The notes: generated by a model not told the origin, from the letters alone. Counted from the stretch's first letter, positions 10,017 through 43,502 are shown. The stretch is 64,000 bases of DNA from Nitratireductor sp. (GCA_017854535.1 JAFMHL010000001.1:27365-91364); one strand, 5' to 3'. Translations and numbers: made by a program.

Positions 10017-10018
10017 AC

Positions 10019-14518: not shown

Positions 14519-14584
14519 ATGTATCAAGAATATTTAAAAACAAAGACAAAATATTTGCAGTCGCGCCGATGATCGACTGGACGG
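14519..14584 (+). pseudogene. Displaced and decayed 5' stub of dusA (left junction, attL-like)
   Basis: ATGTATCAAGAATATTTAAAAACAAAGACAAAATATTTG followed by the 27-mer resembles the first 67 nt of the intact dusA at 42480. It is 1 nt shorter before the core, so the ATG is out of frame with the ...KNKDKIFAVAPMIDWT reading. Similarity ends at 14584. Confidence 0.7.
14558..14584. repeat. 27-bp direct repeat, left copy (CAGTCGCGCCGATGATCGACTGGACGG)
   Basis: Identical to 42520-42546. The flanking bases differ on both sides. Confidence 0.9.
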
Positions 14585-14610
14585 CGAACGCATATTTATC
14601 AAATGGTTAG

Positions 14611-15087
14611 AGCTTACGGCGTGCAAAAGTCCGTGCAGTTGGAAATGAAGCGCTTGATCTTGGCAATATTGTTCAGCCCATCCGCATTGCCACTGCTAGT
14701 CATCTCAAAACTCCGTTTTATGTGCAGTTTGTGATGGGTGTGAAAAACTCTATGCCCGCAGATGAGCGTATTTTTGATTTCTATATAGAGACTTTAAGAC
14801 GTGTTGCGCCTGAGGCTCAATGATGTGCTGCAGGTACTGGCGCAGCACAACTTACAATTAATGAATGGTCGATTTCCAAGTGTGGCCACGCGCGAACAGG
14901 CCTTGAAGATGATGTTAGATTAGACCGCAGTACTCTTGCTCCATCTAATGCAGCGTTGGCCAGACGAGCAGTAGAATCAAATGAAAAATATGAACGTCCT
15001 ATAGCTATTTGGCAGCAAGCCCGCGCAATAATAAAAATGAGAAGTCAGTCCAAGTTTTTCCTTGAGGATGAAGCGTTTCCTCAATAG
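14611..15087 (+). pseudogene. C-terminal fragment of a BKACE / DUF849 (3-keto-5-aminohexanoate cleavage enzyme family) gene, with an in-frame stop
   Basis: Hand translation of one frame gives ...EALDLGNIVQPIRIATASHLKTPFYVQFVMGVKNSMPADE...APEAQ*CAAGTGAAQL...GHARTGLEDDVRLDRSTLAPSNAALARRAVE...ARAII. There is a TGA at 14821-14823 where this family has Trp. The N-terminal third or more is missing. No ORF of 60 aa or longer is in the track here. Confidence 0.55.
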
Positions 15088-15132
15088 CAGCACCTTACAT
15101 TTCCCATGTAGACGGAGTCATGATTTTCGTTA

Positions 15133-16737
15133 TTAAAAGCATAATGCTGTCGAAATTAATTTTCTCATATCCGTAGTTTCAGTTCCCGCCCATGCTACAT
15201 AATGATCAGGGCGCACTAGCAAACAAGGTGCACCGTAAAATTTTTCAGCAGCACTATCTTGCCGATGGATAATGCAGATAGGGAAGTTGTTTCCCGCCAC
15301 GATCGCATTCATCTCTTGGGCACTAATGCCATCTTGCGAGAAGTCTAAGAAAGTGAAATCAGCCCCTAACTCCTCAAAAATGTTTGTACCATTTGCCAAA
15401 ATTTTAGGCGCTAAGTGATGGCCTGCTTGCGCTTTGAAAACGTGTGCTCCGCTTGCGCTAGGCGATGCATTATGATCGCCGCAAACGATACTTGAACCAT
15501 TATAGTTTGGCTCATACGCGGTCACTTCTGAGGAGTCGTTGGTTCTCGAATGCCATTTTGCTTCGAAGGCCCCTAAGTCAGTCTCCGGGCTATATGTTTC
15601 AAGAAACTCACGGTCTTCTATGATGAAGTTTTCAATAAAATCATCTCGAAGGGTTTCGAAGATAGGACGGCGCTCTTCATCATAGGTTTGAAGCAATTCT
15701 GGTTTAGAGATTCCTTTCAACACTGAAGCCAGTTTCCAACCCAAATTTCGGGCGTCTTCCAGACCTGTATTTATGCCATAGCCGCCATAGGGAGGATGAG
15801 AGTGCGCCGCGTCACCAGCTACAAATATGCGACCCTTTTTGTAGGTATTAGCTACAGCAAAGCGTAAATCCCAAAATCCCACATAATCTAGTTCCAAAGT
15901 AAATTCGGCTCCTACTGTGCGATGCAAAAATGCCGCGAAGTCATAATTATCGGCAGTGGTGTCCATTGGAACCGGCGCATGGAAAAACCAGCTTGAACCC
16001 AGATCTACACGGCCGAGAAATTGCCAATACCCTTTCATGTCAGGATGAAGTGCATTGTAAAATGACTTGGTTGGAAACCTGCTTAGCAACTGGTGCAATT
16101 CGGTAGATTTGAAAACCAAAAGCACCATCTTCTTTTCGTGGTCTTGACGCGTCTCAGTTATTCCAGCGAGTTTGCGAACCAGTGAATTGCTTCCATCCGC
16201 CCCAACAAGATATTTGCCTATGATTTGCTGTGTAACAGGTGAATTATCGTTCTTCTTCTTTCGCTTTGTGATTGTTAGAGAAACGTCTTTTTCAGTTTCG
16301 TCCAATGCACTTGCTGCCCAACCGTAAAACAGCGTAATGTTGGAAATTTGCGCGGCACGCTCCCGCAATGCGGCTTCGGTCTCATATTGAGGCAAGCGTT
16401 CTACAGCAGAATAATAATAAGGTTGAACTTTTTCGCGCGGCAGCCATTCGTATCGATGGGGACTTAGCAGATTGCCGTAACTGACAATGCCGCCATTGGC
16501 CACGCCAGCGGGCATGTGGCGGCGTTTGCGCAACTGATCTTCACATTTCCAAAAATGGATATGCTCCATGGTGCGTTGGGTTAAATTTTGACCTTTAGGA
16601 ATTGGTTGCGGCGTTTCATAGCGTTCAACAACCGCAACACTAACACCTCTTTGTCCCAACTCAATAGCCAGTCCCATTCCAACAGGACCGCCCCCTGAAA
16701 TGATTACGTCAAATCGTTTTACAGCTGCCATTCTCAA
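15133..16737 (-). CDS. FAD-dependent aromatic-ring monooxygenase (PheA/TfdB/MhpA-type, with a C-terminal thioredoxin-like domain)
   Basis: 534 aa. DVIISGGGPVGMGLA (GxGxxG), GADGSNSLVR and VAGDAAHSHPPYGGYGINTGLEDARNLGWK are the class-A flavoprotein hydroxylase fingerprints. Confidence 0.8.
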   Translation of the reverse strand: MRMAAVKRFDVIISGGGPVGMGLAIELGQRGVSVAVVERYETPQPIPKGQNLTQRTMEHIHFWKCEDQLRKRRHMPAGVANGGIVSYGNLLSPHRYEWLPREKVQPYYYSAVERLPQYETEAALRERAAQISNITLFYGWAASALDETEKDVSLTITKRKKKNDNSPVTQQIIGKYLVGADGSNSLVRKLAGITETRQDHEKKMVLLVFKSTELHQLLSRFPTKSFYNALHPDMKGYWQFLGRVDLGSSWFFHAPVPMDTTADNYDFAAFLHRTVGAEFTLELDYVGFWDLRFAVANTYKKGRIFVAGDAAHSHPPYGGYGINTGLEDARNLGWKLASVLKGISKPELLQTYDEERRPIFETLRDDFIENFIIEDREFLETYSPETDLGAFEAKWHSRTNDSSEVTAYEPNYNGSSIVCGDHNASPSASGAHVFKAQAGHHLAPKILANGTNIFEELGADFTFLDFSQDGISAQEMNAIVAGNNFPICIIHRQDSAAEKFYGAPCLLVRPDHYVAWAGTETTDMRKLISTALCF

Positions 16738-18161
16738 ACGGTTCCAGATTCCATGTAAACATGTTTGGTTTCGAGGAAGTCGTTTAGTCCCTCTACACCG
16801 TGAAGGCGTCCCAGACCTGATTGACCATAGCCGCCGGTTTCACCTTCGGCAAAGAGCCTTGTATGGGAATTGAGCCATACGGTTCCGGCCCGAATTGCCC
16901 GGCTTACCCGCATTGCGCGGTTCAAATCATTGGTGAACACACTTGCAGCCAGACCGTAAACGGTTGCATTGGCCATCATGACCGCTTCTGCTTCATCCTC
17001 AAACGTTTCGATGGAAACGATAGGTCCGAACAATTCTTCCTGAACCAATTCAGATTGAAGGTCGTCAATACGGAAAATGCTGGGCGTTAGAAATGCACCG
17101 CCGGAAATAGCTTCGCCCTTCAATAGTAACTCGCCTTCATCGCCTGCTTGCTCGATGATCTGCTGCAACCGCTTTTGGTTCGATTGATCAATCAGACTGC
17201 CCATTTGACTGCTTGGATCGGAGCCGCGCCCGACCTCAACTGATTTGAATGCTGCAATCATGCGCTCTTCGAATTTTTTCTGAATAGACTTGTGAACAAG
17301 AAACCGAGCAGCAGCGACACAGATTTGGCCGGCCATCACGAGGGCACCATGGGTAAGCTCATGAACTGCAAGATCAAGATCGGCATCAGCAAATATTAAA
17401 GCAGGCGCTTTGCCGCCCAATTCAAGGTTTACTCGCTTAAGGCTTGGCGCAGCGCCCGCCATTATCAGCTTTCCGGTTCTGCTTGATCCGGTAAAACTGA
17501 TCAGGTCTATATCTGGGCAAGCCACCATAGCCTGACCAACTTCATATCCGTTTTCGTTGATGGAATTCACAACTCCTTTGGGAAGAGACGGGCATTCAAT
17601 CAGGCACTGCAGAACCCTTGCATGAACCAAAGGTGTTTGGTCAGCAGGCTTGATGACACAGGTGCATCCGGCGGCTAAGGCTGGTGCCAGAGATCGCACC
17701 AGCAAAGTTAGCGGTGCATTCCACGGTACGATAATTCCTGCGACACCTGCAGCCTCGCGATGCATAAGTGAGAAATTGCCTGGCGCGGTCTCAATGGTTC
17801 GGCCAAGAACCGTTCGTGCAAGCCCGCCATAATAACGGGTCTCAGAGATCGCGCCGATGGTCTCCCCAAGCGCTTCGGCTCGAAGTTTCCCATTTTCGGC
17901 TACGATCAAATCAACAATTTCATCTTTTGCTGCTGCAAGTCTGTCCGCAAATTCGAATAATACAGATGCTCTCAGACGCGGTGAGGCCTGCCAAGACGTG
18001 TTAAAGAAAACACTTCTTGAAACACCTGCTGCTTGGTCAACAAGTGCTTTTGATCCAACATGATAATTGCCAACCAAACTATTGTCTGCGGGATTGGTGC
18101 TCGCGCGTTTCTCGCCCTTGTCGATCCAGTTTCCATCTATGTAATGCTTCGCAGTTTGCAT
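16734..18161 (-). CDS. NAD(P)-dependent aldehyde dehydrogenase
   Basis: 475 aa. LELGGKAP, a catalytic-Cys region (GQICVAAAR) and EELFGPI. Its stop overlaps the start of the downstream monooxygenase by 4 nt. Confidence 0.85.
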   Translation of the reverse strand: MQTAKHYIDGNWIDKGEKRASTNPADNSLVGNYHVGSKALVDQAAGVSRSVFFNTSWQASPRLRASVLFEFADRLAAAKDEIVDLIVAENGKLRAEALGETIGAISETRYYGGLARTVLGRTIETAPGNFSLMHREAAGVAGIIVPWNAPLTLLVRSLAPALAAGCTCVIKPADQTPLVHARVLQCLIECPSLPKGVVNSINENGYEVGQAMVACPDIDLISFTGSSRTGKLIMAGAAPSLKRVNLELGGKAPALIFADADLDLAVHELTHGALVMAGQICVAAARFLVHKSIQKKFEERMIAAFKSVEVGRGSDPSSQMGSLIDQSNQKRLQQIIEQAGDEGELLLKGEAISGGAFLTPSIFRIDDLQSELVQEELFGPIVSIETFEDEAEAVMMANATVYGLAASVFTNDLNRAMRVSRAIRAGTVWLNSHTRLFAEGETGGYGQSGLGRLHGVEGLNDFLETKHVYMESGTV

Positions 18162-18162
18162 T

Positions 18163-19185
18163 TTAAACTCCTATGGAAAGGCCAAGCAACTTGTTAGCAT
18201 TGTCCTGGAATACTTTGCGTTTGATCTCATCGCTGACATCTAAATCTTCAATGAGCTTGATGGTTTCGCGAATATACATCGGCCCACCTTCTGGATCGAA
18301 AGGTGCGTCTGATGCAAAGAGAACATGGTCTTCGCCAAAGAACTCGATGGCATGTTTAATTGCGCTGGCGGACCCGAAGGTAGCTGTGTCAGCATAGAAA
18401 TCTTTGAAATATTCGAGGTGAGGGCGCTTTAATGATTTTCTGACCGCAGCAAGATCTTTATCTGTAGTGCGTGCACCCATCTGGTCCCAACCGGGGCCAA
18501 CGCGCCCTTCAAAAAACGGAATCATACCGCCGCCATGGTGGGTAATCACATTGAGACCCGGATATTTGTCAAAGAGGCGTGAGAATACCATGCGTGCCAT
18601 GGCTGCTGAAGTTTCATAGGGCCAACCAAAGGTCCACCAGATTTCATATTCAGATTGCTCTTCTGTTTTGTAATCGGAAAAATTTGCGCCGCGTGCAGGA
18701 TGAAGCCAGACTGGTTTGCCAACCTTAGCCATGTATTCGAAGAATGGCTCAAATTCTGCGAGATCAAGCGGCTTGCCTGCAACATTGGTGAAAATCTGCA
18801 TGCCTACTGCGCCAAGTTCCTCAATGGCTCTTTTGCACTCCGTGACACATGCGGCAGGATTGTTCATCGGCGCAGTGCCGATAAAAGCAGGAAATCTTTC
18901 GGGATATTTCTGGCAAAGTTCCGCCATAGAGTCTGAACCGATCTGTGACAACTCCAATGCTTTTTCAGGGCCAGCCAGCAATTCTAGCGGCGGTGAGGCA
19001 AGGGAGAGAACCTGAACATAGTCTTCACCAAACATGTCCATGACCTCAAAGCGGCGATCCAGTTCGGTCATCATAGGCACAGCGCCGGAGCGTTTTGTAA
19101 TATCGCTCATGGTTCCAATATGGTCGATCAAACGATCAAAAAATGGCTTTGGCCAGATATGGTTGAATATATCAATTTTTTTCAT
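18163..19185 (-). CDS. Amidohydrolase_2 (ACMSD / gamma-resorcylate / LigW-type decarboxylase-hydratase family)
   Basis: Start set at MKKIDIFNHIWP, with AGGAA 6 nt upstream. Also has PVWLHP, ITHHGGGMIPFF and FASDAPFD (distal Asp). Lies 1 nt upstream of the ALDH start. Confidence 0.7.
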   Translation of the reverse strand: MKKIDIFNHIWPKPFFDRLIDHIGTMSDITKRSGAVPMMTELDRRFEVMDMFGEDYVQVLSLASPPLELLAGPEKALELSQIGSDSMAELCQKYPERFPAFIGTAPMNNPAACVTECKRAIEELGAVGMQIFTNVAGKPLDLAEFEPFFEYMAKVGKPVWLHPARGANFSDYKTEEQSEYEIWWTFGWPYETSAAMARMVFSRLFDKYPGLNVITHHGGGMIPFFEGRVGPGWDQMGARTTDKDLAAVRKSLKRPHLEYFKDFYADTATFGSASAIKHAIEFFGEDHVLFASDAPFDPEGGPMYIRETIKLIEDLDVSDEIKRKVFQDNANKLLGLSIGV

Positions 19186-19204
19186 GACGTTTCCTGACTG
19201 AGTG

Positions 19205-19999
19205 TTAACCGAAATTGCGGGCCGCATATTCATGCAGTTCCATTGTTGGATATTTTTCGAGGCTTTCTGAAAGCGCTTCAGCTGCCGCTTTAACTTGTTC
19301 TTTGATGATTTCTATCGCTTCGCCATCCACCGATGTTTCTGCAATGGTCATGCATAGGGCGGCAATCGGATTGCGGCTCTCGCCAAAGACAGGAGACGCG
19401 ATGCCGATTACTCCTTTCGTCACTTCACCATAGGCTGCTGCGACACCTTCTTTGCGGACGTTTTTCAAGGCTTCGGTAACTTCCTCGATATCTTCGCCGA
19501 GACCGATTGAAATCAATTCTTCAAGGTTGTTTTGAACTAATTTCTCTATTTGGCGACGAGGCAAGTTTGCCATAATAGCTCTAGAAATCGCGCCTCTGGC
19601 TAAGGGCATAGGGCGCCCACGGGGATAGCTGGATATTGGGTTTGGGATCGAGCATTCAGATGCCACACATAAGAGTTTTTCGCCATACCAACGAACCAGA
19701 AAGCCAGTGCAAGGCCATGCTTTACTCAGGTTTAAAAGATGCTCCTTGCCATATCGTACAAGTGGATCCGAGCACTGCATCAAGAAATCCATCTCTACGA
19801 AGCGAGGCCCAAGGGTCATGATGCCATTTGGCATGGCGACCAGGAAACCCGCTTCTTTCAAGAGCTTTACATAGCGATAAAGAGTAGGGCGCGAATAACC
19901 TAGTTTTTCTATTAATTCATCGGCCGTCCACTCTAGCCTGTTTTCGGTAAAAACATCCAGAATGGTCAATATTTTATCCGCGCTTCCAGTGCCGCTCAT
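19205..19999 (-). CDS. IclR-family transcriptional regulator
   Basis: 264 aa. N-terminal wHTH (LGYSRPTLYRYVKLLKEAGFL) and a C-terminal IclR effector domain (IASPVF...). Overlaps the permease stop by 4 nt. Confidence 0.8.
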   Translation of the reverse strand: MSGTGSADKILTILDVFTENRLEWTADELIEKLGYSRPTLYRYVKLLKEAGFLVAMPNGIMTLGPRFVEMDFLMQCSDPLVRYGKEHLLNLSKAWPCTGFLVRWYGEKLLCVASECSIPNPISSYPRGRPMPLARGAISRAIMANLPRRQIEKLVQNNLEELISIGLGEDIEEVTEALKNVRKEGVAAAYGEVTKGVIGIASPVFGESRNPIAALCMTIAETSVDGEAIEIIKEQVKAAAEALSESLEKYPTMELHEYAARNFG

Positions 20000-21942
20000 T
20001 GGTTTTTCTCCAAGGCAGTTTTCAATTTTTTGCCAGATAGATAATTCGTAATCATGAGAGCCAACCCGCCTCCGGCTCCAACCAAATCTGTCCAGACAGC
20101 TCCTTCAAACATTCCTGCTGGGACCAAGGCCAATAGCCCGAAAAGAGCAAATAGAATACGCATTTGCGGGCTTAGTTCGCTTGCAAAGAAACCTGCAAGG
20201 CTTGCTGAAATCAACCAAACCCCAAATGTAGCTGTGACGATTGCAATCGTGATTTCCAAAGGCTCGCCAATCAACAAGAGTGTTGGTGAGAAAACAAAAA
20301 GCAAAGGAATGATATAGGCCGCCCAGCCGAATTTCATAGCGGCCCATCCCGTTGCCATTGCGGGAGCTCTGGCAATAGAGGCTGCAGCAAACGCAGCTAG
20401 GGCAATCGGTGGTGTGATCATCGACATCATACCGAAATAGAGAACATATAAATGTGCGGCGATTGGCTCAATTCCAACCTGAACCAGGGCTGGAGCAACC
20501 AAAGCTGCAAGCAAGACATAGACACCAAGGGTTGGAAGGCCCATGCCTAATATGATGCAAACTATTGCTGATAAAAAAAGCAATATGATCGCGCTGCCGC
20601 CCCCAACTTGCACCAAAGCATAGGTCAAGTTGAAGCTGAGACCCGTCACATTTAATACGCCAATTACCAAGCCGGACGCTGCTGAAATCAGGATGATTTC
20701 CACTAATGAATGACCAGTTGTAGAAAGGCTATCAAAGAGTTTTCTCGGAGAGGGACGTTGGCCTGCATAACCAAATATGAGCGATGTAAAGATTAGGCAA
20801 AGGGCTGCCGCTAGCGCTGCTTTTTCAGGCCGCCAACCCAATGTGAATAGTGTGTAGATCAAGACTACAAAGGCTAATAGAAAATGCAGCCCAGTTAGTA
20901 CTTTGCGTTTCTCAGGCAACATCGAAGCGGGCACAGGAGCAATACCAAGTTTGGCTGCTTCAAGATCGGCCTGAATAAACAATGCAACGTAATACAAGAT
21001 GGCTGGCACGAGCGCGGCCATAACGATTTCAGAATATGGAATTGCCAAGAATTCGGCCATTAAAAAGGCTGATGCACCCATGACAGGCGGCATCAGTTGC
21101 CCACCAGTAGAGGCAACCGCTTCAATAGCTGCAGCTTTGTGAGCCGGGTATCCGTCTTTCTTGATCATAGGGATTGTTATGACCCCAGTGCCCACAACAT
21201 TTGCCACTGCAGAGCCCGAGATTGATCCGAAAAGACCAGAAGCAAGAACTGCGATTTTCATCGATCCACCGCGAAACCGACCCATTGCTAGCATCGCAGC
21301 ATCTGTAAAAAAGTAAGTTCCGCCGGTAGCGGAAAGAAGAGTGCCGAAAAGAATAAACGTGATCACGACAGTCGCAGCTACAGAAAGAGGTAAGCCCAAC
21401 ACACCGTTTGAATCAAATGCCATATAACCAGACAGAACTTGCCAGTTCTGTGCGCGTCCTTGCAAACGTCCAGGTAAAAGATCGCCGATAAGAGCGTATA
21501 ATAAAAACACAGCAATAATGATAACGAGCGCCCAGCCAGTTGCCCGGCGCAAAGCTTCTAAAAGCAACAAAGTAATGATGAGACCGGGCAGCCAAACGGC
21601 AATCGGCTTCAAGAAGATAAGGGTGACCAGATCTGGATAGTTGATCAGAATGTATCCGGAGACCAAGAAGGAGATGGCAGCCAAGGCAATATCATACCAG
21701 GGAACATGTCTGTTGCGGCTTCGTGTGGCTTTTGCCTTTGCTGGCAATGTCAAAAATGCCATGGGCATGACACATGCCAAAATCGCTGCAAAATATTGCT
21801 GCGGATAAAAACCGATGTTCAACATGCGCAGCACATTGAGTGCATAAGCGATGGCAATTACCATCATTAAAATGGCAAGACCGTCTGCTATCCGCTGAAC
21901 GAAAAGGCCTGAATTAGCCTTTTCGATTGAAGTGTCCGCCAT
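19996..21942 (-). CDS. TRAP transporter, fused 4TM/12TM permease (TAXI-type system)
   Basis: 648 aa, highly hydrophobic along its whole length. The size and its pairing with a TAXI receptor gene are typical. Confidence 0.8.
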   Translation of the reverse strand: MADTSIEKANSGLFVQRIADGLAILMMVIAIAYALNVLRMLNIGFYPQQYFAAILACVMPMAFLTLPAKAKATRSRNRHVPWYDIALAAISFLVSGYILINYPDLVTLIFLKPIAVWLPGLIITLLLLEALRRATGWALVIIIAVFLLYALIGDLLPGRLQGRAQNWQVLSGYMAFDSNGVLGLPLSVAATVVITFILFGTLLSATGGTYFFTDAAMLAMGRFRGGSMKIAVLASGLFGSISGSAVANVVGTGVITIPMIKKDGYPAHKAAAIEAVASTGGQLMPPVMGASAFLMAEFLAIPYSEIVMAALVPAILYYVALFIQADLEAAKLGIAPVPASMLPEKRKVLTGLHFLLAFVVLIYTLFTLGWRPEKAALAAALCLIFTSLIFGYAGQRPSPRKLFDSLSTTGHSLVEIILISAASGLVIGVLNVTGLSFNLTYALVQVGGGSAIILLFLSAIVCIILGMGLPTLGVYVLLAALVAPALVQVGIEPIAAHLYVLYFGMMSMITPPIALAAFAAASIARAPAMATGWAAMKFGWAAYIIPLLFVFSPTLLLIGEPLEITIAIVTATFGVWLISASLAGFFASELSPQMRILFALFGLLALVPAGMFEGAVWTDLVGAGGGLALMITNYLSGKKLKTALEKNQ

Positions 21943-21953
21943 TTATGTAGGCC

Positions 21954-22910
21954 TTATTTCAAACCGGCTTCAGCGAAAAATTTCAAAGCGCCAGGATGAA
22001 AATCGACCACACCTGGATCACCTTTCATGTCTGCTGGATTAAATGCACCAAACGGTTTGAAAGTTTCAACCATAGCAGCCTTACCTTCATGCATGGCTTT
22101 GGCCATTTGATAAACGACTTCATCAGAAACACCCGCATGAGTGAAGACAACCTGAGGAAACGCGATGTAGGTTGTATCTTCCAATACGCCAGGTGAACTT
22201 CCGGCTTTCATCACAGTAAAGAAGGCAGTCGGCCAATGTTTCTTTGCTGCTGCCAAGGCTGCATCGCTATCATCTGCAACACCAAGTGCGCGAAGGCCAC
22301 CGACCGCTGCGTCTGCTTCACGCACCTTGCCTGCGCCATGAGCGAAAATGAACCCAACGGCATCGCCTGCAATAAATGCATCTGCGCCACCCACAACTGA
22401 AGGCACATTTACCGGTGTCATGTCTGCGCGTGACATTCCTGCTGTCGAATAAAACGCTTCAAGTTGCGGCAGGATCGTGTTTTGTGCAGTAAAGCCGTCG
22501 GTCATTGGCTTCCCCTTAAGGTCCGCCAAAGTCATGATGTCACTGTCTTTACGAACGAAGATGGCTTCTTTCAAAGGCATAAGCATTCCGACGATGCGCA
22601 GATTTGGATTTTTATTGCCTTCCCACCAGGCTTCCCCAGTTAAAGCATAGTTCACTTCCTGCAGATTTGCGACGCCAAATTCAATGCCGCCGGAATTCAG
22701 CAATGGAATAAACTGGTTGGGACTTGTTGCCGGTTGAATTGTTGTATTGAGGCCAGCCTTATTTGCAGCATTAGCAACAGCCGTTCCGATATTGTGGAAC
22801 AATGATCCCGGATTTGAAGTGGCTATTCCCACTGCTTGAGCTGATGCGGTACTTACCAGGCCCAATGTTAGCGTGGCGCCAAGCGCCAATGACGCGATTA
22901 ATTTACGCAT
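21954..22910 (-). CDS. TAXI-family TRAP transporter solute-binding receptor
   Basis: 318 aa. Signal peptide MRKLIASLALGATLTLGLVSTASAQA followed by VGIATSNPGSLFHNIG, typical of TAXI (TIGR02122-like) receptors. Confidence 0.8.
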   Translation of the reverse strand: MRKLIASLALGATLTLGLVSTASAQAVGIATSNPGSLFHNIGTAVANAANKAGLNTTIQPATSPNQFIPLLNSGGIEFGVANLQEVNYALTGEAWWEGNKNPNLRIVGMLMPLKEAIFVRKDSDIMTLADLKGKPMTDGFTAQNTILPQLEAFYSTAGMSRADMTPVNVPSVVGGADAFIAGDAVGFIFAHGAGKVREADAAVGGLRALGVADDSDAALAAAKKHWPTAFFTVMKAGSSPGVLEDTTYIAFPQVVFTHAGVSDEVVYQMAKAMHEGKAAMVETFKPFGAFNPADMKGDPGVVDFHPGALKFFAEAGLK

Positions 22911-22971
22911 ATTTTTTCCTCCCGAAAAAAGTTGAAGAGTACAAATTTAGAAAACTCTACTCTGCACATAG

Positions 22972-23031: not shown

Positions 23032-23092
23032 TGTTTTATCGATGATGCGCCGCATTACAGGTAAATTTGGCAAGATTTTGGGAGTGAAATTG

Positions 23093-26962: not shown

Positions 26963-27014
26963 AAATGTGTATTTCTTCAAATTTGACTTGCTAAAGTTTT
27001 AACATTTTGCATAA

Positions 27015-27023
27015 TTGTATACA
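27015..27023. promoter_or_regulatory. Second copy of the operator-like motif (AATTGTATACAG)
   Basis: TTGTATACA is repeated 62 bp downstream of the first copy and 26 nt upstream of the GntR start codon. Confidence 0.45.
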
Positions 27024-27048
27024 GGGTATGCTTGGAGGAGCGGAAATC

Positions 27049-27780: not shown

Positions 27781-27810
27781 ATTTAGTTTTTACCTTAGGA
27801 GGAAAAAATA

Positions 27811-29217: not shown

Positions 29218-29326
29218 ACTGCATAAGGTTTGAATAAACCAAAATCACATGTGGGCCGGGATGTCTTGGCCCACCAAATACCTGAAACGGGAATCGTCCT
29301 GTTCAGTTTTTTCGGGAGGAAACATT

Positions 29327-32118: not shown

Positions 32119-32132
32119 CTTGGGAATAGGGT

Positions 32133-34176: not shown

Positions 34177-34235
34177 GCGCATTGTAAACAGTTGCGGGGG
34201 ACATAGCTCCTCCGTGATTGTGCGTGGATAATTTG

Positions 34236-36022: not shown

Positions 36023-36750
36023 CAACAGGCCGCACACTTTTGAAAGTCAATAACATCACCAAGCGCTTCGGTGGTTTAGTGGCAGTAGATAATGTAAGCT
36101 TTGACGTGAAAGAACATGAAGTCTTGGGCCTGATTGGACCTAATGGCTCGGGTAAAACGACCATTATGAATTTAATTTCTGGCGCGTTTAAAGTTTCGTC
36201 GGGAACCATTTCAATGCAAAGCCGCCGCTTGTCTTCCTTACCAGCTCACCAGATTTCTCGTGCTGGGGTTGCGCGCACGTTTCAGTTGGTTCGTATTCTT
36301 CCAAGCCTGACTATTATTGAAAATGTCATGGCAGGATCTGGCTTTGGTCATCGGCGCCAATGGGGCCGTGAAGCGTGCCATCAGGCAGAGGCTTTGCTTG
36401 AACGTCTAGGCTTGGGTGCGCAAATGCATGATCCGGCTGCATCACTTACCTATATTGATCAAAAGCGATTGGAGCTTGCCCGTGCGTTGGCTGGAGAGCC
36501 GCGCGTATTGCTGTTGGATGAGTGGTTGGCGGGGCTCAACCCGACCGAACTTCAAATCGGTATTGATCTGGTTTCACAGCTGCGCAAAGAAGGTCGTACA
36601 ATCATTTTGGTCGAGCATGTTATGGATGCTATTCGCTCTTTGTGTGATCGATGTGTCGTGATGAACTCTGGTGAGAAAATCGCTGAAGGAACGCCTGCAC
36701 AAGTACTTTCGGACAAAGAAGTCATTCATGCCTATTTGGGAGATGACTAA
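36019..36750 (+). CDS. ABC transporter ATP-binding protein (LivG family)
   Basis: Walker A GPNGSGKTT, signature-region context and Walker B LLLDEWLAG. The ATG at 36019 overlaps the LivM stop (ATGA). The track lists a TTG at 36001. Confidence 0.85.
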   Translation: MTTGRTLLKVNNITKRFGGLVAVDNVSFDVKEHEVLGLIGPNGSGKTTIMNLISGAFKVSSGTISMQSRRLSSLPAHQISRAGVARTFQLVRILPSLTIIENVMAGSGFGHRRQWGREACHQAEALLERLGLGAQMHDPAASLTYIDQKRLELARALAGEPRVLLLDEWLAGLNPTELQIGIDLVSQLRKEGRTIILVEHVMDAIRSLCDRCVVMNSGEKIAEGTPAQVLSDKEVIHAYLGDD

Positions 36751-38000
36751 TGCTTAGTGTTTCCAATATTTCAGTGGTTTACGGGGCTCATAGGGCGCTT
36801 GAGAAAGCTTCGATTCAAGTCGATGCAGGTGAAATCGTTGTTATCCTTGGTGCCAATGGTGCTGGGAAAAGTTCGCTTTTGAAGGCGATCTCTGGAACGT
36901 GCGAAGGAAAAGTACAAGGCAAGGTTGAGCTGGATGGTAAATCTCTGTCTGGCCTTCCTGCAGAAATCATTGTTGTAAAGGGGGTGGCTTTTGTTCCTGA
37001 GGGGCGAGGTATTTTCGGCGATTTGACCGTTAAAGAAAATCTGTTGCTCGGCGCTCATGCAAAGGAAGCGCGAAACCATCAAGAAACAAACCTGTCCCGC
37101 GTTTATGAGCTATTCCCCAAGCTCCAAGAGCGGGAGAAGCAGATTGCCAGAACGATGTCTGGTGGTGAGCAGCAAATGGTAGCCATTGGACGTGCTATTA
37201 TGGCCAACCCAAAAATTCTAATGCTGGATGAACCTTCGCTTGGATTATCACCATTGCTTTGCAAGGAATTGTTTCAAAACCTTGCTCATGTTCGCGATAC
37301 AGGCATCGGCGTCTTGATGGTTGAACAGAACGCTAAACAATCCCTCGCTATCTCTGATCGTGCATATCTTTTGGAAAATGGATCTATCACTGGTGAGAAT
37401 TTTGCCAAGGCTATGATGAATGATCCGGCAGTTCAGGCAGCTTATCTGGGTGGAGCGAAATCAACTGGCGCTCCTGAAAAGCAAAAAGTAAGTTTGCCAA
37501 GTGAAGCAGTGCGCGATGCTCAAGCAATAGCCATTCCCGATATTGCCACCATGCCATCTCATAAATTTATCCAGCCCTCTGCGTCTAGAAATGGCTCATC
37601 AATTGTTGGGAATGTTTCTGGCATGGATATTGCCTCGATGGTCAGCAAGGCAGATGCTGTTTCCAAAATTGCCAATGATGGAATACCCTATAGTGCCGAC
37701 AAAAAAACACCAGGCGCGACACAAGCGCGATCGAGTGCAATGGCTATGATTTCCAAAACGCCAAGCCTTCTTTCGTCGAATGATCCGGAGGTCAGAGACT
37801 TGCTTGCGAGTTTTGAAAATGCGGCATCCAGTGTGCGAACGCCTACAAATGAAAGTTCTCACAGGGCGCAAGCCGGGATGCAAAAAGAAGTAGAAAGTGC
37901 TGGTGAAATTTTACCCGAAATACCGGTCTATAGACGTTCAAAGCTCGAAGTATACCGACGAACGCCTGATGGCGAATTGGTGAAAGTGGAGATTAGATGA
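36750..38000 (+). CDS. ABC transporter ATP-binding protein (LivF family) with a ~175-aa low-complexity C-terminal extension
   Basis: Residues 1-~238 form a complete LivF-type NBD (GANGAGKSS, MSGGEQQM, LMLDEPSLGL, ...AAYLGG). The frame then stays open for ~175 more codons that are Ser/Ala-rich, ending ...IPVYRRSKLEVYRRTPDGELVKVEIR. Confidence 0.8.
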   Translation: MLSVSNISVVYGAHRALEKASIQVDAGEIVVILGANGAGKSSLLKAISGTCEGKVQGKVELDGKSLSGLPAEIIVVKGVAFVPEGRGIFGDLTVKENLLLGAHAKEARNHQETNLSRVYELFPKLQEREKQIARTMSGGEQQMVAIGRAIMANPKILMLDEPSLGLSPLLCKELFQNLAHVRDTGIGVLMVEQNAKQSLAISDRAYLLENGSITGENFAKAMMNDPAVQAAYLGGAKSTGAPEKQKVSLPSEAVRDAQAIAIPDIATMPSHKFIQPSASRNGSSIVGNVSGMDIASMVSKADAVSKIANDGIPYSADKKTPGATQARSSAMAMISKTPSLLSSNDPEVRDLLASFENAASSVRTPTNESSHRAQAGMQKEVESAGEILPEIPVYRRSKLEVYRRTPDGELVKVEIR

Positions 38001-38001
38001 A

Positions 38002-39465
38002 ATGACTTATTTTACACCTAATGGGTTTTATTCTGGTGGCCAATGGCGACGTGCCTCGAGAAAATTCAGTGATCTAAATCCAGCAGACGGTTCTATTTGG
38101 GCGGAAATAGACGATGCAGATTTGAGCGATGCAAAAAGTGCCATCGCCAGCGCCCAGGCTGCTTTTCCAGCTTGGGCAGCGTTACCGTTCACGGACCGCG
38201 TCGATTATATGCTTAAATTTGCTGCTGAGATTGAACGTCGGCGCGATGACCTTATCAAAGCGGTGCAAGGCGAGGGTGGCGGTTGGTTCGGCAAAGGCAT
38301 CCATGAAGCCAATGCCCTGCAAGAAATTTGCAAAGCAGCTGCTGGTGCTGCCTATGGCAATATTGGAGAGATTCTTCCCTCTGCAAGCGGAAAAATGTCA
38401 TTCGCCATGCGCCGTCCAATGGGTGTTATATCCGTTATCAGTCCCTGGAATGTTCCAGCACTTTTGTCTGCACGCCAATTCGCGTTTCCATTGGTTGCTG
38501 GCAATACGATTGTTCTAAAACCTTCCGAAGAAACACCTTATTGTGGTGGCCTTTTCTTTGCTGAAATCTGCGATGCCATAGGACTGCCTGCAGGCGTTTT
38601 TAATGTTGTTACATGCTCCCGGGACAATGTGATGGCAGTTGGAGATGAGCTGATAGAAAACCCAGCGGTTAAAGGGATTTGCTTTACAGGGTCTACTGCC
38701 GTTGGTCGCACGATTGCTGCCAAAGCGGGCGCGCATTTAAAAAAATGCTGTATAGAACTCGGCGGCAAAGATGCCTTGATTGTTTGCGATGATGCGGATC
38801 TCGACAGAGCGGCGCAGCTCGCGAATTTTGGATCCTTTATGCACCAAGGCCAGATTTGCATGAGCGTGGAAAAACTTTTGGTTCATGAAAAAATTTATGA
38901 GCCATTCATGAAAAAGTTTATTGCCAGGGCAGCGAAACTTAAAGTCGGCGATCCACTCAAAAGTAATGACAATGTCATCGGTCCTTTGATCAATGACAAA
39001 CAGGTAAACATTGTCAGAGAGCAGCTAGAAGACGCTGTTGCAAAAGGTGCGAGGATAGAACTAGGTGGTAAAATTAATGGCCGCTATGTTGAACCCACGA
39101 TCCTGACTGGAATCACGCCCGATATGCTTGTCTATCAAAACGAAACTTTTGGACCAGTGGCTCCCGTGATCCCCTTTAGAACTGATGCTGAGGCCATCGC
39201 CATCGCGAATGATACTCCTTATGGATTGTCATCAGGGGTCTGCACAACTAATGAACAAAGAGGGTTGAGCATTGCCGAGGGTTTGCAGACAGGGATGTCA
39301 CACATAAATTGCTCCCCTGTAAATGATGAGCCGAATGCGCCATTTGGCGGTGCCAAATCTTCAGGGGTAGGGCGCTACGGCGGACGTTGGGGTATGGAGA
39401 ATTTTACTGAAACACGTTGGATAACAGTTGAGCGGGGCGGTAAAAAAATTCCGCCTGCGTTCTAG
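38002..39465 (+). CDS. NAD(P)-dependent aldehyde dehydrogenase (aromatic-aldehyde / vanillin-benzaldehyde dehydrogenase-like)
   Basis: 487 aa. VISPWNVP, ELGGKDA, GQICMSVE (catalytic Cys) and ETFGPV. Starts 1 nt after the LivF stop. Confidence 0.8.
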   Translation: MTYFTPNGFYSGGQWRRASRKFSDLNPADGSIWAEIDDADLSDAKSAIASAQAAFPAWAALPFTDRVDYMLKFAAEIERRRDDLIKAVQGEGGGWFGKGIHEANALQEICKAAAGAAYGNIGEILPSASGKMSFAMRRPMGVISVISPWNVPALLSARQFAFPLVAGNTIVLKPSEETPYCGGLFFAEICDAIGLPAGVFNVVTCSRDNVMAVGDELIENPAVKGICFTGSTAVGRTIAAKAGAHLKKCCIELGGKDALIVCDDADLDRAAQLANFGSFMHQGQICMSVEKLLVHEKIYEPFMKKFIARAAKLKVGDPLKSNDNVIGPLINDKQVNIVREQLEDAVAKGARIELGGKINGRYVEPTILTGITPDMLVYQNETFGPVAPVIPFRTDAEAIAIANDTPYGLSSGVCTTNEQRGLSIAEGLQTGMSHINCSPVNDEPNAPFGGAKSSGVGRYGGRWGMENFTETRWITVERGGKKIPPAF

Positions 39466-39474
39466 GAGGACGAT

Positions 39475-40299
39475 ATGTCAGATCAATCCTGGACCAATGG
39501 TAAATTGTTGGATGGCAAGACAATTGTTGTCACCGGTTGCTCCTCGGGCATCGGCAAGGAGATCGCTCGTCTGGTCAAAAAACTGGGTGGAGATGTTCTT
39601 GGTGTCGATGTCAATAAAAGCGATGAATATGTCGACGAATTGTATATCGCTGACTTGTCTGATCGCCGCACGATAAAAGCACTGGTGCAAGCCTTGCCAA
39701 CACGCATTGATGGAATCGCCAATAGTGCCGGGCTTCCTCCTACAGCACCAGCCAATAAAGTTATCGGTGTGAACTTGGTAGGGCTTAAATATTTTACGGA
39801 ATTGATGATACCCAAACTCAATGATGGGGCATCAATTGTGAATGTTGCATCATTGGCCGGGTTTGGATGGCCTCAAGCTATCCCAGCCATAAAAGCGAGC
39901 GAGAGCCTTGGGTTTGAAGATATTGATGACTTCATAACCAAGTATGGTGTCACAAATGATGGGGGGCGTAGCTATTTCTTCTCTAAAGAAGCGCTAATCG
40001 TTTGGACAATGAAAAATAGATGGACCTGGCGAGATCGCAATATTCGTATGAACTCGGTATCACCTGGTCCTGTAGATACCCCTATCTTGAAAGATTTTTT
40101 GGAAACGCTAGGCGACAGAGCCGATGAGGATCGCAAAGTCATGGATAGGCCTGGTCTTCCTGAAGATATTGCCCCTGTCGTTATCTTCCTTTTGTCTGAT
40201 ATGACCCATTGGATTAGAGGCACAAATATACCAACCGATGGCGGCATGTCATCCCATCTGCACTGTAAAATTCATATGCTTGAGGAGACGAAACAATGA
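39475..40299 (+). CDS. SDR, coniferyl-alcohol-dehydrogenase (CalA)-like subfamily
   Basis: 274 aa. VTGCSSGIGKE, IDGIANSAGLPP, YFFSKEALIVW and SPGPVDTPIL mirror the atypical CalA-type SDR layout as I remember it. Confidence 0.65.
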   Translation: MSDQSWTNGKLLDGKTIVVTGCSSGIGKEIARLVKKLGGDVLGVDVNKSDEYVDELYIADLSDRRTIKALVQALPTRIDGIANSAGLPPTAPANKVIGVNLVGLKYFTELMIPKLNDGASIVNVASLAGFGWPQAIPAIKASESLGFEDIDDFITKYGVTNDGGRSYFFSKEALIVWTMKNRWTWRDRNIRMNSVSPGPVDTPILKDFLETLGDRADEDRKVMDRPGLPEDIAPVVIFLLSDMTHWIRGTNIPTDGGMSSHLHCKIHMLEETKQ

Positions 40300-41906
40300 G
40301 TGGTATTATCACCTCCCTCATTATTGCAATTATAGTCATTGCAGTTCTTGTGGTTTTGGCAGCCTATTTCAACCAACGATCCAGTCGTGAAGTCAGCTTG
40401 ATACGAACTGGACTTGGTGGGCGAAAAGTTGCGCTGGATGGAAGTCTTTTGGCCATTCCATATTTTCACGATGTATCCCGCGTAAACATGCAGACACTGC
40501 GTCTTGAGGTTCGCAGAATTGGTGAAAGTTCGCTTATCACCAAAGACCGTTTGCGCGTTGATGTGGGGGCAGAGTTTTATGTCTCGGTTGATCCGACCGA
40601 AGAAGCCGTTGATCGTGCGTCACAAACTTTGGGTGATCGAACATTTGACGCTAATCGTTTGCGCGAACTGATTGAAGGTAAATTGGTGGATGCCTTGCGT
40701 TCAGTCGCAGCGCGTATGACCATGGATGAGTTGCATGAAAAACGGGCAGAATTTGTTGCAGAAGTAGGTGAACTTCTAAATACACCTCTTATGCGGAATG
40801 GCTTGGCATTGGAAAGTGTATCTCTTTCTGCTTTAGATCAAACGCCGTTTTCAGCACTGGATGAAAACAATGCCTTTAATGCTGTTGGTATGCGCAAACT
40901 TGCTGAAGTGATTGCGAAATCCAAGAAAGAACGCGCAGAAATTGATGCTGATGCGGAAGTTTCAGTGCACCGTTCGTCAATGGAAGCCTCGAAGCGTAAG
41001 CTCGAAATTGACCTCGAACAAGAAGAGGCACAGATACGCCAGACACAAGCAGTCGAGAGTTTGCGTGCTGCCCAATTGGCAGAAGTTGCCGCTCGTAAAG
41101 CAGATAGTGAGCGGTCAATTCATGAGTCTCGGATCAAAATGGAAAGAGATATTCGTTCTGCTGATATCGAACGGGAAAAGACCATTCGTCAGGCTGAAAT
41201 TGACCAGACGAGAGATATCGAGATTGCCGAACAAGATCGTGTCATCGCGATTTCAAAGAAGACACAAGATGAAAGTAAAGCGCGTGCATCTGCTGATTTG
41301 GCAAAAGCGGAAGCTGTATCCGCTGCTGAGGCAATAGGCACGGCCAGGGCAGTTGCAGAAGCGCAACGGAAAAAGCAAATTGCGATCATGCATGCTCAGC
41401 AAGAGTCTGAAGTATCTGCCGAGAAACTGATCGCGGACGCGAAGACTCAAGCAGAAGTTTCAGTCGAAATTGCCAAGCGCACGCTTCAAGACGCGAAAGC
41501 GCAAGCAGAAGCCTCTAAACTGCGCATTGCGACTATGAATGACGAGATGGAGACAAAAGCGAAAGGGCAAAAAGCGCTCAATGAAGCTGAAAATGTCTTT
41601 AGCAAAGAGATGATTGCTCTGAAAGGCGATATTGCAAAATTGGAGGCATTGCCGAAAATTGTTGAGCAGATGGTCAAGCCTGCTGAGAAAATTGAATCCA
41701 TTCGTATCAACCATCTCAGTGGTGGACATTCTGGTGGCGGAAACGGGGGCACAAACTCTAAACCGCCGGTCAATCAGGCTTTGGATTCCATCATGGAGAT
41801 GGCTGTCCAACTTCCTGCTTTGAAAAAAATTGGTGAGGAACTTGGGATTAACATCGAAGAAGGAATGAGCGGTATTTCCAAGTCAAAATCCAAGGGAAAC
41901 AAATAG
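40296..41906 (+). CDS. Flotillin / SPFH (band-7) family membrane protein, YqiK-like
   Basis: 536 aa. N-terminal TM helix, an SPFH domain (TKDRLRVDVGAEFYVSV), a long Ala/Glu/Lys-rich coiled-coil and a Gly-rich tail. The ATG overlaps the SDR stop (ATGA). Confidence 0.8.
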   Translation: MSGIITSLIIAIIVIAVLVVLAAYFNQRSSREVSLIRTGLGGRKVALDGSLLAIPYFHDVSRVNMQTLRLEVRRIGESSLITKDRLRVDVGAEFYVSVDPTEEAVDRASQTLGDRTFDANRLRELIEGKLVDALRSVAARMTMDELHEKRAEFVAEVGELLNTPLMRNGLALESVSLSALDQTPFSALDENNAFNAVGMRKLAEVIAKSKKERAEIDADAEVSVHRSSMEASKRKLEIDLEQEEAQIRQTQAVESLRAAQLAEVAARKADSERSIHESRIKMERDIRSADIEREKTIRQAEIDQTRDIEIAEQDRVIAISKKTQDESKARASADLAKAEAVSAAEAIGTARAVAEAQRKKQIAIMHAQQESEVSAEKLIADAKTQAEVSVEIAKRTLQDAKAQAEASKLRIATMNDEMETKAKGQKALNEAENVFSKEMIALKGDIAKLEALPKIVEQMVKPAEKIESIRINHLSGGHSGGGNGGTNSKPPVNQALDSIMEMAVQLPALKKIGEELGINIEEGMSGISKSKSKGNK

Positions 41907-41924
41907 GTTTTTGTAGATTCAGCT

Positions 41925-42361
41925 AAGACTTCCTTGGATATCTCGATTTTGGACCAACCAAAGGATGTTTGATTTCTTATTGCTGACTCGGATTTGAGTT
42001 CTGTTTAAGCCATCATTGCCAAAGGGCGCTTGGTGTTGTGTGCTCTGGGGAAATTTCAGTTGTTTAGAGGCCCGATTAGGAAGGCAAGATAAAACAAGTG
42101 GTGTCGGGGGAGGCGTAATCGCCAGTATAGCCTTGTCAATTTTAGTGTCATTTAGATTTCCAGGGCGTCGAAAATCTAGTAAGTAATTGATATTTAGTCG
42201 TTATATTGGCTCGTAAAGCCTTCGGTTTAGATTCAGCTTTATTCTGAACTTATTTTATCACCTATCATGATACCCGCTTCAAACTGCCCGTAAAGGCGCT
42301 TTGCCCGCTTTCGCGGCGGGTCTTCAACCCAGCCTTGTCTTGTTTTATAGATTGTTGCCAT
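41925..42361 (-). pseudogene. Possible remnant of a tyrosine-integrase gene (N-terminal region only, frame-disrupted)
   Basis: The minus-strand ATG at 42361 opens a 40-codon ORF (MATIYKTRQGWVEDPPRKRAKRLYGQ...). A different minus frame at about 41940-42120 reads ...LKFPQSTQHQAPFGNDGLNRTQIRVSNKK..., reminiscent of the core-binding/SAM-like domain (P.FG...L..IT). No catalytic domain is present. This is weak, pattern-level evidence only. Confidence 0.35.
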
Positions 42362-42393
42362 GATCCATACAGTCCTTTAAATATGTGCGAAAT

Positions 42394-42453
42394 CCGTACA
42401 ACAGGAGATCAAAAAGGATCCAAACCCGTACAATTCTGTCCATTTCCGTACAA
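42394..42453 (+). repeat. Three direct copies of CCGTACAA (42394, 42426, 42446) between the integrase remnant and the dusA start
   Basis: The copies read aatCCGTACAAca, aacCCGTACAAtt and tttCCGTACAAat, with spacings of 32 and 20 bp. They could be arm-type recombinase sites or promoter elements of the surrogate dusA 5' region. Confidence 0.45.
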
Positions 42454-42479
42454 ATTTGTTCCTGATTTATACCATTGTA

Positions 42480-43502
42480 ATGTATCATAAGAAATTGAAA
42501 AATAAAGATAAAATATTCTCAGTCGCGCCGATGATCGACTGGACGGATCGCAATTGCCGTTTCTTTCATCGGGTACTGACGAAGCATGCGTTGCTGTATA
42601 GTGAGATGATTGTGGCTGATGCGGTTATCCATGGAGATCGCGATAAGCTGTTAGGCGATGACACAACCGGACCTGTAGCATTACAGTTGGGCGGCTCGGA
42701 ACCGCAAAAACTCGGCGACGCGGTTCGGTTTGCCGCGCCTTATAACTATGGGGAAATCAATTTGAATGTTGGCTGTCCGTCAGACCGCGTTCAATCAGGA
42801 ACTTTTGGGGCCTGCTTGATGCGAACTCCAGAATTGGTTGGAGAATGTGTTGCAGCCATGAAAGCGGAAACGGATCTTCCTGTTACTGTGAAATGCCGTA
42901 TTGGGGTGGATGATCAAGATACGGGCCCAGCCCTTAATGATTTGGCGCATGCGGTTTGGAATGCTGGATGTGATGGGCTTTGGGTTCATGGGCGCAAAGC
43001 ATGGCTTGAAGGGCTTAGCCCAAAACAAAACCGGGAAATCCCTCCCTTGGATTATCCAAGAGTGCATCGTCTCAAGCAAGAGAATCCAAGTCATTTCATC
43101 GGTTTAAATGGCGGCATTCAAACTTTGATTCAGGCGAGGGAAGCGCTTACGTCGGATATGGCTGAATTGGATGGGATCATGGTAGGACGAGCCTCCTATC
43201 AGTCACCTTCTATTCTTCGAGAGGTTGACCAGACATTTTATGGCGATGCAGCCGACCCTAAATCATATGAAGAAATCATCGATGTGATGACTGCCTATGC
43301 TGCGCAACATTTGCAAATGGGTGGAAGGCTGCATCAAGTTACCCGCCATATGATTGGGTTATTTCAGGCGGTTCCTGGCGCGCGACGCTGGCGGCAAATA
43401 CTCAGTAGTGAAGCGACCCAGTTTGATGCAGGTGTGGATGTGATTGAGCGAGCCTTCAGCGAAGTTGATCTTACAGGTTCATTATCTGGTGAGGCGGCCT
43501 GA
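42480..43502 (+). CDS. dusA: tRNA-dihydrouridine(20/20a) synthase
   Basis: 340 aa from the ATG at 42480. FSVAPMIDWTDRNCRFFHR, INLNVGCPSDRV and TVKCRIGVD are DusA hallmarks. The track ORF begins at a TTG at 42456. Confidence 0.9.
   Translation: MYHKKLKNKDKIFSVAPMIDWTDRNCRFFHRVLTKHALLYSEMIVADAVIHGDRDKLLGDDTTGPVALQLGGSEPQKLGDAVRFAAPYNYGEINLNVGCPSDRVQSGTFGACLMRTPELVGECVAAMKAETDLPVTVKCRIGVDDQDTGPALNDLAHAVWNAGCDGLWVHGRKAWLEGLSPKQNREIPPLDYPRVHRLKQENPSHFIGLNGGIQTLIQAREALTSDMAELDGIMVGRASYQSPSILREVDQTFYGDAADPKSYEEIIDVMTAYAAQHLQMGGRLHQVTRHMIGLFQAVPGARRWRQILSSEATQFDAGVDVIERAFSEVDLTGSLSGEAA
42520..42546. repeat. 27-bp direct repeat, right copy (inside the dusA 5' coding sequence)
   Basis: Identical to 14558-14584. 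Encodes SVAPMIDWT of DusA. Confidence 0.9.

Follow-up and report, generated by a model that had tools for sequence, protein, structure and literature searches.

Genomic islands that integrate into dusA were described by Farrugia et al. (NAR 2015, PMC4482086), who found that the integrase gene adjoins the 5' end of dusA and that the new 5' end of the gene is derived from the island. The attachment (att) sites of these dusA islands measure 26–28 bp with a 21-bp consensus, and the islands themselves, 4.7 to 185 kb long, carry highly varied cargo in which metabolic genes are represented (PMC4482086). Their hosts include Alphaproteobacteria (Sinorhizobium, Mesorhizobium), and Rci is the nearest characterised relative of the dusA-associated tyrosine integrases (DAIs), which form a clade with RHRH/Y residues (PMC4482086). 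Here, we analysed a stretch of 64,000 nt from Nitratireductor sp. (GCA_017854535.1, JAFMHL010000001.1:27365-91364; hereafter the window), in which the segment from 14519 to 42546 ends within the 5' part of dusA. This segment is very probably (at roughly 85%) a decayed dusA-specific integrative island of the DAI family. Coordinates are counted from the window's first letter, and L-numbers denote the comparison loci that were fetched (n = 182).

The segment is bounded by a perfect direct repeat that overlies a conserved part of dusA, as do the direct repeats of about 21–28 bp at dusA islands. The 27-mer CAGTCGCGCCGATGATCGACTGGACGG occurred exactly twice in the window, at 14558–14584 and 42520–42546, both times on the plus strand. 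No third site was found in the window with up to 3 mismatches allowed, 100 shuffles gave 0 matches (0 expected by chance), and a degenerate dusA-core pattern (GCNCCNATGATNGANTGGAC) recovered the same two sites only, with no internal third att-like site. Without gaps the repeat extended to 53 nt at 91% identity (14532–14584 against 42494–42546, a spacing of 27,962). Each copy was preceded by an ATG and a related stretch of about 40 nt (ATGTATCA...AAAATATT), which from ATG to core was 1 nt shorter in the left copy than in the right. The 3' edge was sharp, as the likeness stopped right after ...GACGG, with CGAACG coming next in the left copy and ATCGCA in the right. The right copy lies inside an intact DusA open reading frame (ORF) of 340 aa (PF01207, E 8e-71), where the core begins at nt 2 of codon 14 and ends at nt 1 of codon 23 (S/A-VAPMIDWT-D); the displaced 5' end is found 27,962 nt upstream. 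An earlier reading of this DNA (the original prediction) had named the perfect repeat, the related 40 nt before each copy with similarity ending at the 3' edge of the core, and a second copy encoding SVAPMIDWT of an intact dusA, and all three were borne out. It had also allowed that the 27-mer might be a dispersed multi-copy repeat; across the 182 fetched loci, it was present only at a dusA start or stub, one per junction. The features at the two junctions were assigned as follows.

14519–14557, plus strand: displaced original 5' end of dusA (the stub), out of frame, with a peptide that reconstructs to MYQEYLKNKDKIFA- (from the sequence, L179 and L171/L172).
14558–14584, plus strand: left copy of the 27-bp att core, at the integrase-distal junction (repeat searches).
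14585–14650, plus strand: left terminal arm of the island, with CGTGCAA (14620–14626) and CCGTGCAG (14631–14638), conserved in L179 (L179 homology).
41907–42331, no strand: degenerate non-coding backbone after loss of the integrase, including a 48-nt block, with strain breakpoints at 42037 (L180) and 42192 (L170) (comparisons).
42332–42361, minus strand: first 10 codons of a tyrosine integrase (MATIYKTRQG), the start of a 40-aa ORF at 42239–42361 (homologous integrase starts).
42362–42479, plus strand: integrase–dusA spacer brought by the island, with three CCGTACAA repeats (spacer alignment).
42480–42519, plus strand: island-borne surrogate 5' end of dusA (MYHKKLKNKDKIF-), with an N-terminus of the type in the integrase-linked loci L011, L014 and L013.
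42520–42546, plus strand: right copy of the 27-bp att core, inside functional dusA (repeat search, ORF).
42547–43502, plus strand: native remainder of dusA, downstream of which the gene order is conserved throughout Hyphomicrobiales (ORF, synteny).

The two 5' ends of dusA belonged to different types. The stub, which is the left copy, lies 3' of the amidase gene (12998–14446) and has a frameshift caused by a 1-nt deletion in an A-run; because the stretch from ATG to core is 1 nt shorter, the short ORF that begins at this ATG loses the dusA frame and terminates within the core. With the lost base of the A-run restored, the stub reads MYQEYLKNKDKIFAVAPMIDWT. In a sister strain (L179), the stub is still in frame (MYQEHLKNKEKIFSVAPMIDWT), which confirms the reconstruction, and its core differs from that of the window at 4 positions. 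An initial MAFFT alignment had placed the stub closer to L011 than to L171; this placement was dropped, as manual realignment and the in-frame L179 stub show the loss of 1 nt. Residues 3–5 of the stub, the only ones that discriminate between the types, resemble those of the closest relatives without an integrase, L171 and L172. The DusA of L171 (82% identical, no integrase spacer) starts MYEEYLK, and its first 21 nt match those of the stub at 20/21 positions, while that of L172 (75% identical, no integrase spacer) has the stub-like start MYQSSLK. At its N-terminus (MYHKKLKNKDKIFS), the present DusA belongs with the integrase-linked L011, L014 and L013 (MYHKSLKNKEKIF; MHHKSLENQEKIF), and with this replacement 5' end the gene was kept as an intact 340-aa ORF with a full Dus domain. 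The two 5' parts differed mostly at synonymous third positions of ...KNKDKIF..., which indicates that both evolved as coding dusA starts, and the few discriminating characters are in line with the fact that the current 5' end is physically linked to the integrase spacer.

Next to the surrogate 5' end, the first codons of an integrase gene have survived. MATIYKTRQG also opens the ORFs found immediately upstream of dusA, in divergent orientation, in L011, L014 and L180. The first of these, from a Rhizobiaceae metagenome-assembled genome (MAG), is an integrase pseudogene with one stop and one frameshift; the second, from Chelativorans xinjiangense, is an intact tyrosine recombinase of 349 aa; and the third, from a sister strain with 92–93% nucleotide identity, is a 62-aa remnant (MATIYKTRQGHWRVQVRRKGKYVSRTF...) with clear homology to the integrase N-terminus. 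The distance from integrase start to dusA ATG was 118 nt in the window and 116–119 nt in L011/L014, and the spacer aligned in conserved blocks. Copies of CCGTACAA were found in the spacer at 42394, 42426 and 42446, with no other copy in the 64 kb, and repeats reading CGTGCA(A/C) occupied the same aligned spacer positions in L180, L011 and L014. The spacer repeats, as well as CGTGCAA and CCGTGCAG in the left arm, are candidate arm-type integrase sites, and the spacer presumably carries a replacement dusA promoter.

On the far side of the lost gene, a non-coding block of 48 nt (42056–42103) was 85% identical to L011 8658–8705, which lies just 3' of the L011 integrase, and this identity held despite a 10-point difference in guanine plus cytosine (GC) content between the genomes (47% vs 57% GC). 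The block had no Rfam match and may be a conserved signal of the island backbone. Since the integrase start codons and the post-integrase block were both kept, both ends of the integrase locus remain and the gene itself has been lost. In place of an adjacent DAI tyrosine recombinase, only 10 codons, the spacer and the post-integrase block are left, and without an intact integrase gene the window holds a relic of a dusA island and not a functional member. An integrase-like remnant beside dusA had been proposed in the original prediction; this applies to the first 10 codons and the conserved spacer, and not to the rest of the 40-aa ORF. Local alignment of that remainder with the L014 integrase gave a score of 26, which was equalled by 35% of shuffles, and the likeness of its RKRAKRL and FEAG motifs to integrase was for this reason rejected as chance.

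Loci of this kind were found elsewhere. Integrases or their fragments were located directly upstream of dusA and divergent from it at 15 of 80 Hyphomicrobiales dusA loci. Homologues of the L014 integrase were present in phages (426 records, including one whose annotation reads shufflon-specific recombinase), and it also matched 2,379 records of plasmids, most of which are conjugative and enterobacterial. In phage mEp460_4F5 (LR595868), a homologous integrase (40% identical to that of L014) is divergent from a surrogate 5' end of Escherichia coli dusA, which breaks off at ...SIAPMLD, in the same crossover region. As a separate observation, a Pseudorhodoplanes MAG (L083 8858–10032) carries two dusA cores 1,149 nt apart, a miniature dusA-island relic of ~1.15 kb, between which lie a tRNA-like sequence and two sets of repeats, TGTAGCAC close to the left end and the inverted GTGCTACA close to the right end.

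The observed repeat, homologies, gene content and strain differences lead us to infer the recombination event and the order of the later deletions as follows. A circular element, with an attP made up of a surrogate dusA 5' end and the 27-bp core, would have recombined site-specifically with the same core in chromosomal dusA (codons 14–23). The host's own dusA start would have been moved ~28 kb upstream, behind the amidase gene, and the remaining part of dusA would have been fused to the promoter-proximal spacer and replacement N-terminus of the element, so that DusA is still a full-length ORF. The integrase gene would later have been deleted down to 10 codons, and another deletion would probably have extended from where the left arm ends into the gene of a beta-keto acid cleavage enzyme (BKACE); the integrase-proximal module differs from that of a sister strain. 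The order of stub, cargo, integrase relic and dusA fits that of published dusA islands, which supports the displaced stub and reconstituted gene that had been proposed for this locus.

Excision of the element would no longer be neutral for the host gene. In silico, excision joined the frameshifted stub to dusA, and no in-frame ATG, GTG or TTG was present upstream of M18. A product that started at M18 would lack the N-terminal beta-strand region, which is considered necessary in DusA (PMC4482086). Because of the frameshift in the stub, excision would thus not restore dusA, and the island would be fixed. Among the contigs retrieved, none was of the attB or attP type. The suggestion that the element is domesticated and immobile is supported, as the integrase has been deleted, no recombination directionality factor (RDF) is encoded and dusA would have no usable start after excision.

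Between the left arm and the degenerate backbone, the following genes were identified.

14647–15087, plus strand: BKACE pseudogene that retains just the C-terminal half and is interrupted by an in-frame stop (14821–14823) (PF05853 positions 145–273 of 274, E 1e-29).
15133–19233, minus strand: FAD aromatic-ring hydroxylase, aldehyde dehydrogenase and Amidohydro_2 protein (decarboxylase/hydrolase-like) (profile searches).
19205–22910, minus strand: IclR regulator and TAXI-type TRAP transporter (fused DctQM plus TAXI binding protein) (TIGR02122, 132 bits vs a cut-off of 84).
23042–26765, no single strand: thiamine diphosphate (ThDP)-requiring enzyme (PRK08327), TauE/SafE exporter and MFS transporter, the last on the minus strand (profile searches).
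27007–32819, plus strand: GntR regulator, LigM (27811–29217), TRAP DctPQM and alpha/beta hydrolase (profile searches, NF047885).
32965–38000, plus strand: Liv-type ABC transporter with a binding protein, two permeases and two ATPases (profile searches).
38002–41906, plus strand: aldehyde dehydrogenase, coniferyl-alcohol dehydrogenase-type SDR and flotillin/SPFH protein (NF009092, 290 bits vs a cut-off of 242).

A total of 23 cargo ORFs lie between 15133 and 41906, and 97.6% of this DNA is coding. LigM, a vanillate/3-O-methylgallate O-demethylase, matched NF047885 over its full length with 622.8 bits, relative to an equivalog cut-off of 580, and the CalA-like (coniferyl-alcohol dehydrogenase-type) SDR exceeded the subfamily cut-off of NF009092. 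Beside these, the cargo includes two aldehyde dehydrogenases, two regulators (IclR and GntR) and five transporters (TAXI-TRAP, TRAP DctPQM, Liv-type ABC, MFS and TauE). The profile searches thus agree with the catabolic and uptake cargo that had been listed for the island (LigM-type demethylase, hydroxylase, two aldehyde dehydrogenases, CalA-like SDR and transporters). They agree equally with the claim that excisionase, phage and transfer genes are absent, as Pfam matches to phage, transfer, excisionase or transposase families were found in 0 of the 23 cargo ORFs. Nor did any of these 23 have a Pfam match to rdfN, the PrtN homologue, and the high coding content leaves no room for an additional RDF gene of ~100 aa. 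Scans of the window returned no tRNA and no Rfam family. From the families encoded, the cargo likely serves the uptake and funnelling of methoxylated, lignin-derived aromatics.

Compared to its sister strains, the content between the att copies of the window is mosaic, partly deleted and remodelled within the lineage. L179 was homologous to window positions 12244–14650 (amidase, stub, core and 66-nt left arm) and then diverged, with GST, dehydrogenase, amidase and DctM genes in place of those of the window. The BKACE pseudogene (14647–15087) begins exactly where this homology stops (~14650), and the window lineage probably lost cargo through a deletion that reached from the left arm's end into the BKACE gene. 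L180 and L181 were colinear with the window from 17812 to 42037 (92–93% identity) and differed from there on; the unseen part of the L180 contig would, by its size, fit DctQ, DctP, BKACE and the hydroxylase. The integrase–dusA module of L180/L181 was 76% identical to that of the window and 79% identical to that of L011. L170 was 96.5% identical to the window from 42192 on, with the same integrase deletion junction, and was different to the left of 42192.

Right-arm repeats were of the CGTACA type in the window and L170, and repeats of the CGTGCA type were found in the left arm of the window and in the arms of L180, L011 and L014; this mismatch between right and left arms suggests that the integrase module was replaced, or that a second integration was followed by deletion. 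The integrase gene is cut after codon 10 in the lineage of the window and L170 and after about codon 55 in L180, which indicates that it decayed independently in sister strains. Since the content between the repeats has been rearranged and partly deleted, as these strains show, the 28 kb was probably not acquired all at once and then left unmodified. The 28-kb island in dusA of the original prediction therefore stands as regards site, architecture and decay, and is unlikely to be a single untouched acquisition, given the breakpoints near 14650, 42037 and 42192.

Several observations weigh against the interpretation of the segment as an integrated island. Its GC content was 0.470, relative to 0.474 in the flanks, and its tetranucleotide distance fell inside the null distribution, with 27% of equal-sized segments reaching the value of the island. 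The compositional comparison that had been suggested as a check on the island thus gave no foreign signal. Such flank-like composition implies either that the donor was a close relative or that the cargo has long been resident. Between strains, the cargo was 92–93% identical and the left flank 88%; as the cargo is at least as similar as the flank, it was resident before the strains split or came from a very close relative. An empty site, with the amidase gene directly followed by dusA, had likewise been suggested as a check and was found in no close relative. All 16 of the 16 retrieved contigs with an amidase or DusA sequence identical to that of the window were in the integrated state. In a search of 185,579 species genomes with DusA, relatives were at most 67% identical, with downstream synteny kept and unrelated sequence upstream. 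JGI metagenomes contained amidase matches of at most 62% identity without synteny, and amidase homologues at 75% identity (L174, L175) had other neighbours and were not next to dusA. In addition, the integrase trace is thin at 10 codons, the 40-aa ORF (42239–42361) had no Pfam and no PHROG match, and no match to the sigma-70 consensus was found upstream of dusA on the plus strand. Finally, the KNKDKIF motif is common to the stub and the current 5' end, so that the assignment of one as native and the other as island-borne rests on a few residues and the linked spacer.

Some of these observations would be expected if no integrase had been involved, that is, if the stub were a segmental duplication of the dusA start or the scar of a rearrangement and the 28 kb were ordinary chromosome. 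Composition equal to that of the flanks, the lack of an intact mobility gene and the fact that synteny is anyway broken upstream of dusA throughout the order (downstream of the gene, the order dusA-YkuD-TauE-protease-CobT-HisK is conserved across Hyphomicrobiales) are all compatible with such an origin. We nevertheless regard it as very improbable, since the integrase start codons, the spacer and the post-integrase block are homologous to integrase-bearing dusA loci, and MATIYKTRQG with its spacer is not a general dusA leader, being absent from L171 and L172. The two 5' ends moreover differ mainly at synonymous positions and belong to different N-terminus types, and the core has a sharp boundary at the published DAI crossover region. 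An island that was acquired in a single, essentially unmodified step, with the whole 27.9 kb derived from one element and only the integrase decayed, has more in its favour. By geometry, all DNA between direct att copies belonged to the circle, apart from any later insertion; the cargo, of which 97.6% is coding, contains no insertion sequence, transposase or second integrase; and 17812–42037 is colinear at 92–93% in another strain. This history remains unlikely, although it retains a real chance, because BKACE is truncated at its 5' end at ~14650, where L179 homology ends and the L179 genes differ, the integrase-proximal module is only 76% identical to that of L180 vs 92–93% for the cargo, the right arm is of the CGTACA type and the left arm of the CGTGCA type, and L170, at 96.5% identity, diverges to the left of 42192.

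It is also conceivable that the relic can be mobilised in trans, with a related DAI and RdfN from another element excising the 28-kb module. The two cores are identical at 27/27 positions although the stub is otherwise decaying and the L179 stub core differs at 4 positions, arm-like repeats are present at both ends, and related integrases are common in Hyphomicrobiales (15/80 dusA loci). However, the identical 27-mer was also kept in the dusA of L171, and identity of the cores can hence reflect coding constraint and modest age. The arm repeat types of the two ends are mismatched, excision would leave dusA without a start, the retrieved contigs with identical amidase or DusA were integrated in 16/16 cases, and no circular or empty junction was seen. 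Present mobility of this kind thus appears quite improbable, and a decayed, locked-in dusA island of the DAI family remains our preferred interpretation.

A broader proposal can be added to it, namely that the dusA site in this marine Hyphomicrobiales lineage is a recurrently used, additive hot spot with module swap, cargo shuffling and possible trans-mobility. We consider this proposal doubtful as a whole and put it forward tentatively. Regarding the module swap, integrase modules that differ in arm-site specificity may have taken each other's place, and the three aligned right-arm repeats may have changed together from CGTGCA to CGTACA while the left arm kept the older type; regarding the cargo, cassettes for the catabolism of lignin-derived aromatics may be shuffled among close relatives.

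The surroundings of dusA differed among the fetched loci, and the region upstream of the gene is variable throughout the clade. In L173 (DusA 74% identical), positions 1–5030 encode a type I CRISPR-Cas set (Cas7, Cas5d, Cas3 and Cas6b) 5–10 kb upstream of dusA. In L175 (7445–11470, compared to window 5164–14446), the amidase gene comes immediately after kinase, SDR and alcohol dehydrogenase genes. In the window, these genes and the amidase are separated by an additional 5.3 kb (malic enzyme, PhyH, SDR and a histone-deacetylase-like protein), which indicates that the left flank is itself variable. In L172 (DusA 75% identical), a homologue of the class-V aminotransferase encoded at 2699–3952 of the window lies ~1.4 kb upstream of dusA (L172 1–193 vs window 3722–3914); its position is a faint trace suggesting that the far-left flank of the window may once have been near dusA.

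Two further features were observed in the window. Inverted repeats of 40 nt, 90% complementary, are present at 62065–62104 and 62307–62346, where they enclose 202 nt in the interval from FdhD (minus strand) to thymidine kinase (plus strand); this pair (62065–62346) looks like a miniature inverted-repeat transposable element or a large palindromic regulatory element. The longest ORF of YkuD (L,D-transpeptidase; 43444–44127) overlaps the 3' end of dusA by 59 nt, and gene calls on identical contigs use a later start, giving 178 aa.

Overall, these results explain a duplicated gene start and trace ~28 kb of catabolic genes back to a once mobile element; their host is an uncultured marine alphaproteobacterium whose GC content is 47%. 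The locus is a case of domestication, in which the integrase was deleted independently in sister strains, the displaced start is decaying and excision would be costly. It further suggests that genes for the catabolism and uptake of vanillate- and coniferyl-type aromatics travel within the lineage via the dusA hot spot. The mechanism is not new, as the system is already well described and the locus is an ordinary example of a known island type.

Compared to the dusA islands of Farrugia et al., the window shares the insertion in the 5' end of dusA, att repeats over APMxDWT, a new 5' end, an integrase site next to dusA and metabolic cargo. It differs from them in that the integrase is reduced to 10 codons, no PrtN/RdfN homologue is present and the stub is frameshifted, and also in its host-like composition and its purely catabolic and transport cargo. 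IMEVchUSA3 and other SGI1-like Vibrio elements (Durand et al., PLoS Genet 2021, PMC8409611) resemble the window in supplying a new promoter and a dusA N-terminus of the same length, and in having attL and attR around the same site (PMC8409611). In contrast to the window, which has none of these, such elements encode int, rdfN and mobilisation functions, have AcaCD-responsive promoters and are mobilised by IncC plasmids (PMC8409611). Phage mEp460_4F5 (LR595868) has a complete phage genome and an intact integrase, whereas the window is without phage genes; in both, the integrase is divergent from a surrogate dusA end, which in the phage stops in the APM(L/I)D codons. SXT/R391 integrative and conjugative elements differ in target gene, integrase family and their full conjugation machinery, but at the 5' end of prfC they follow the same principle, in which integration into the 5' end of a housekeeping gene is accompanied by a replacement promoter and N-terminus (PMC8409611).

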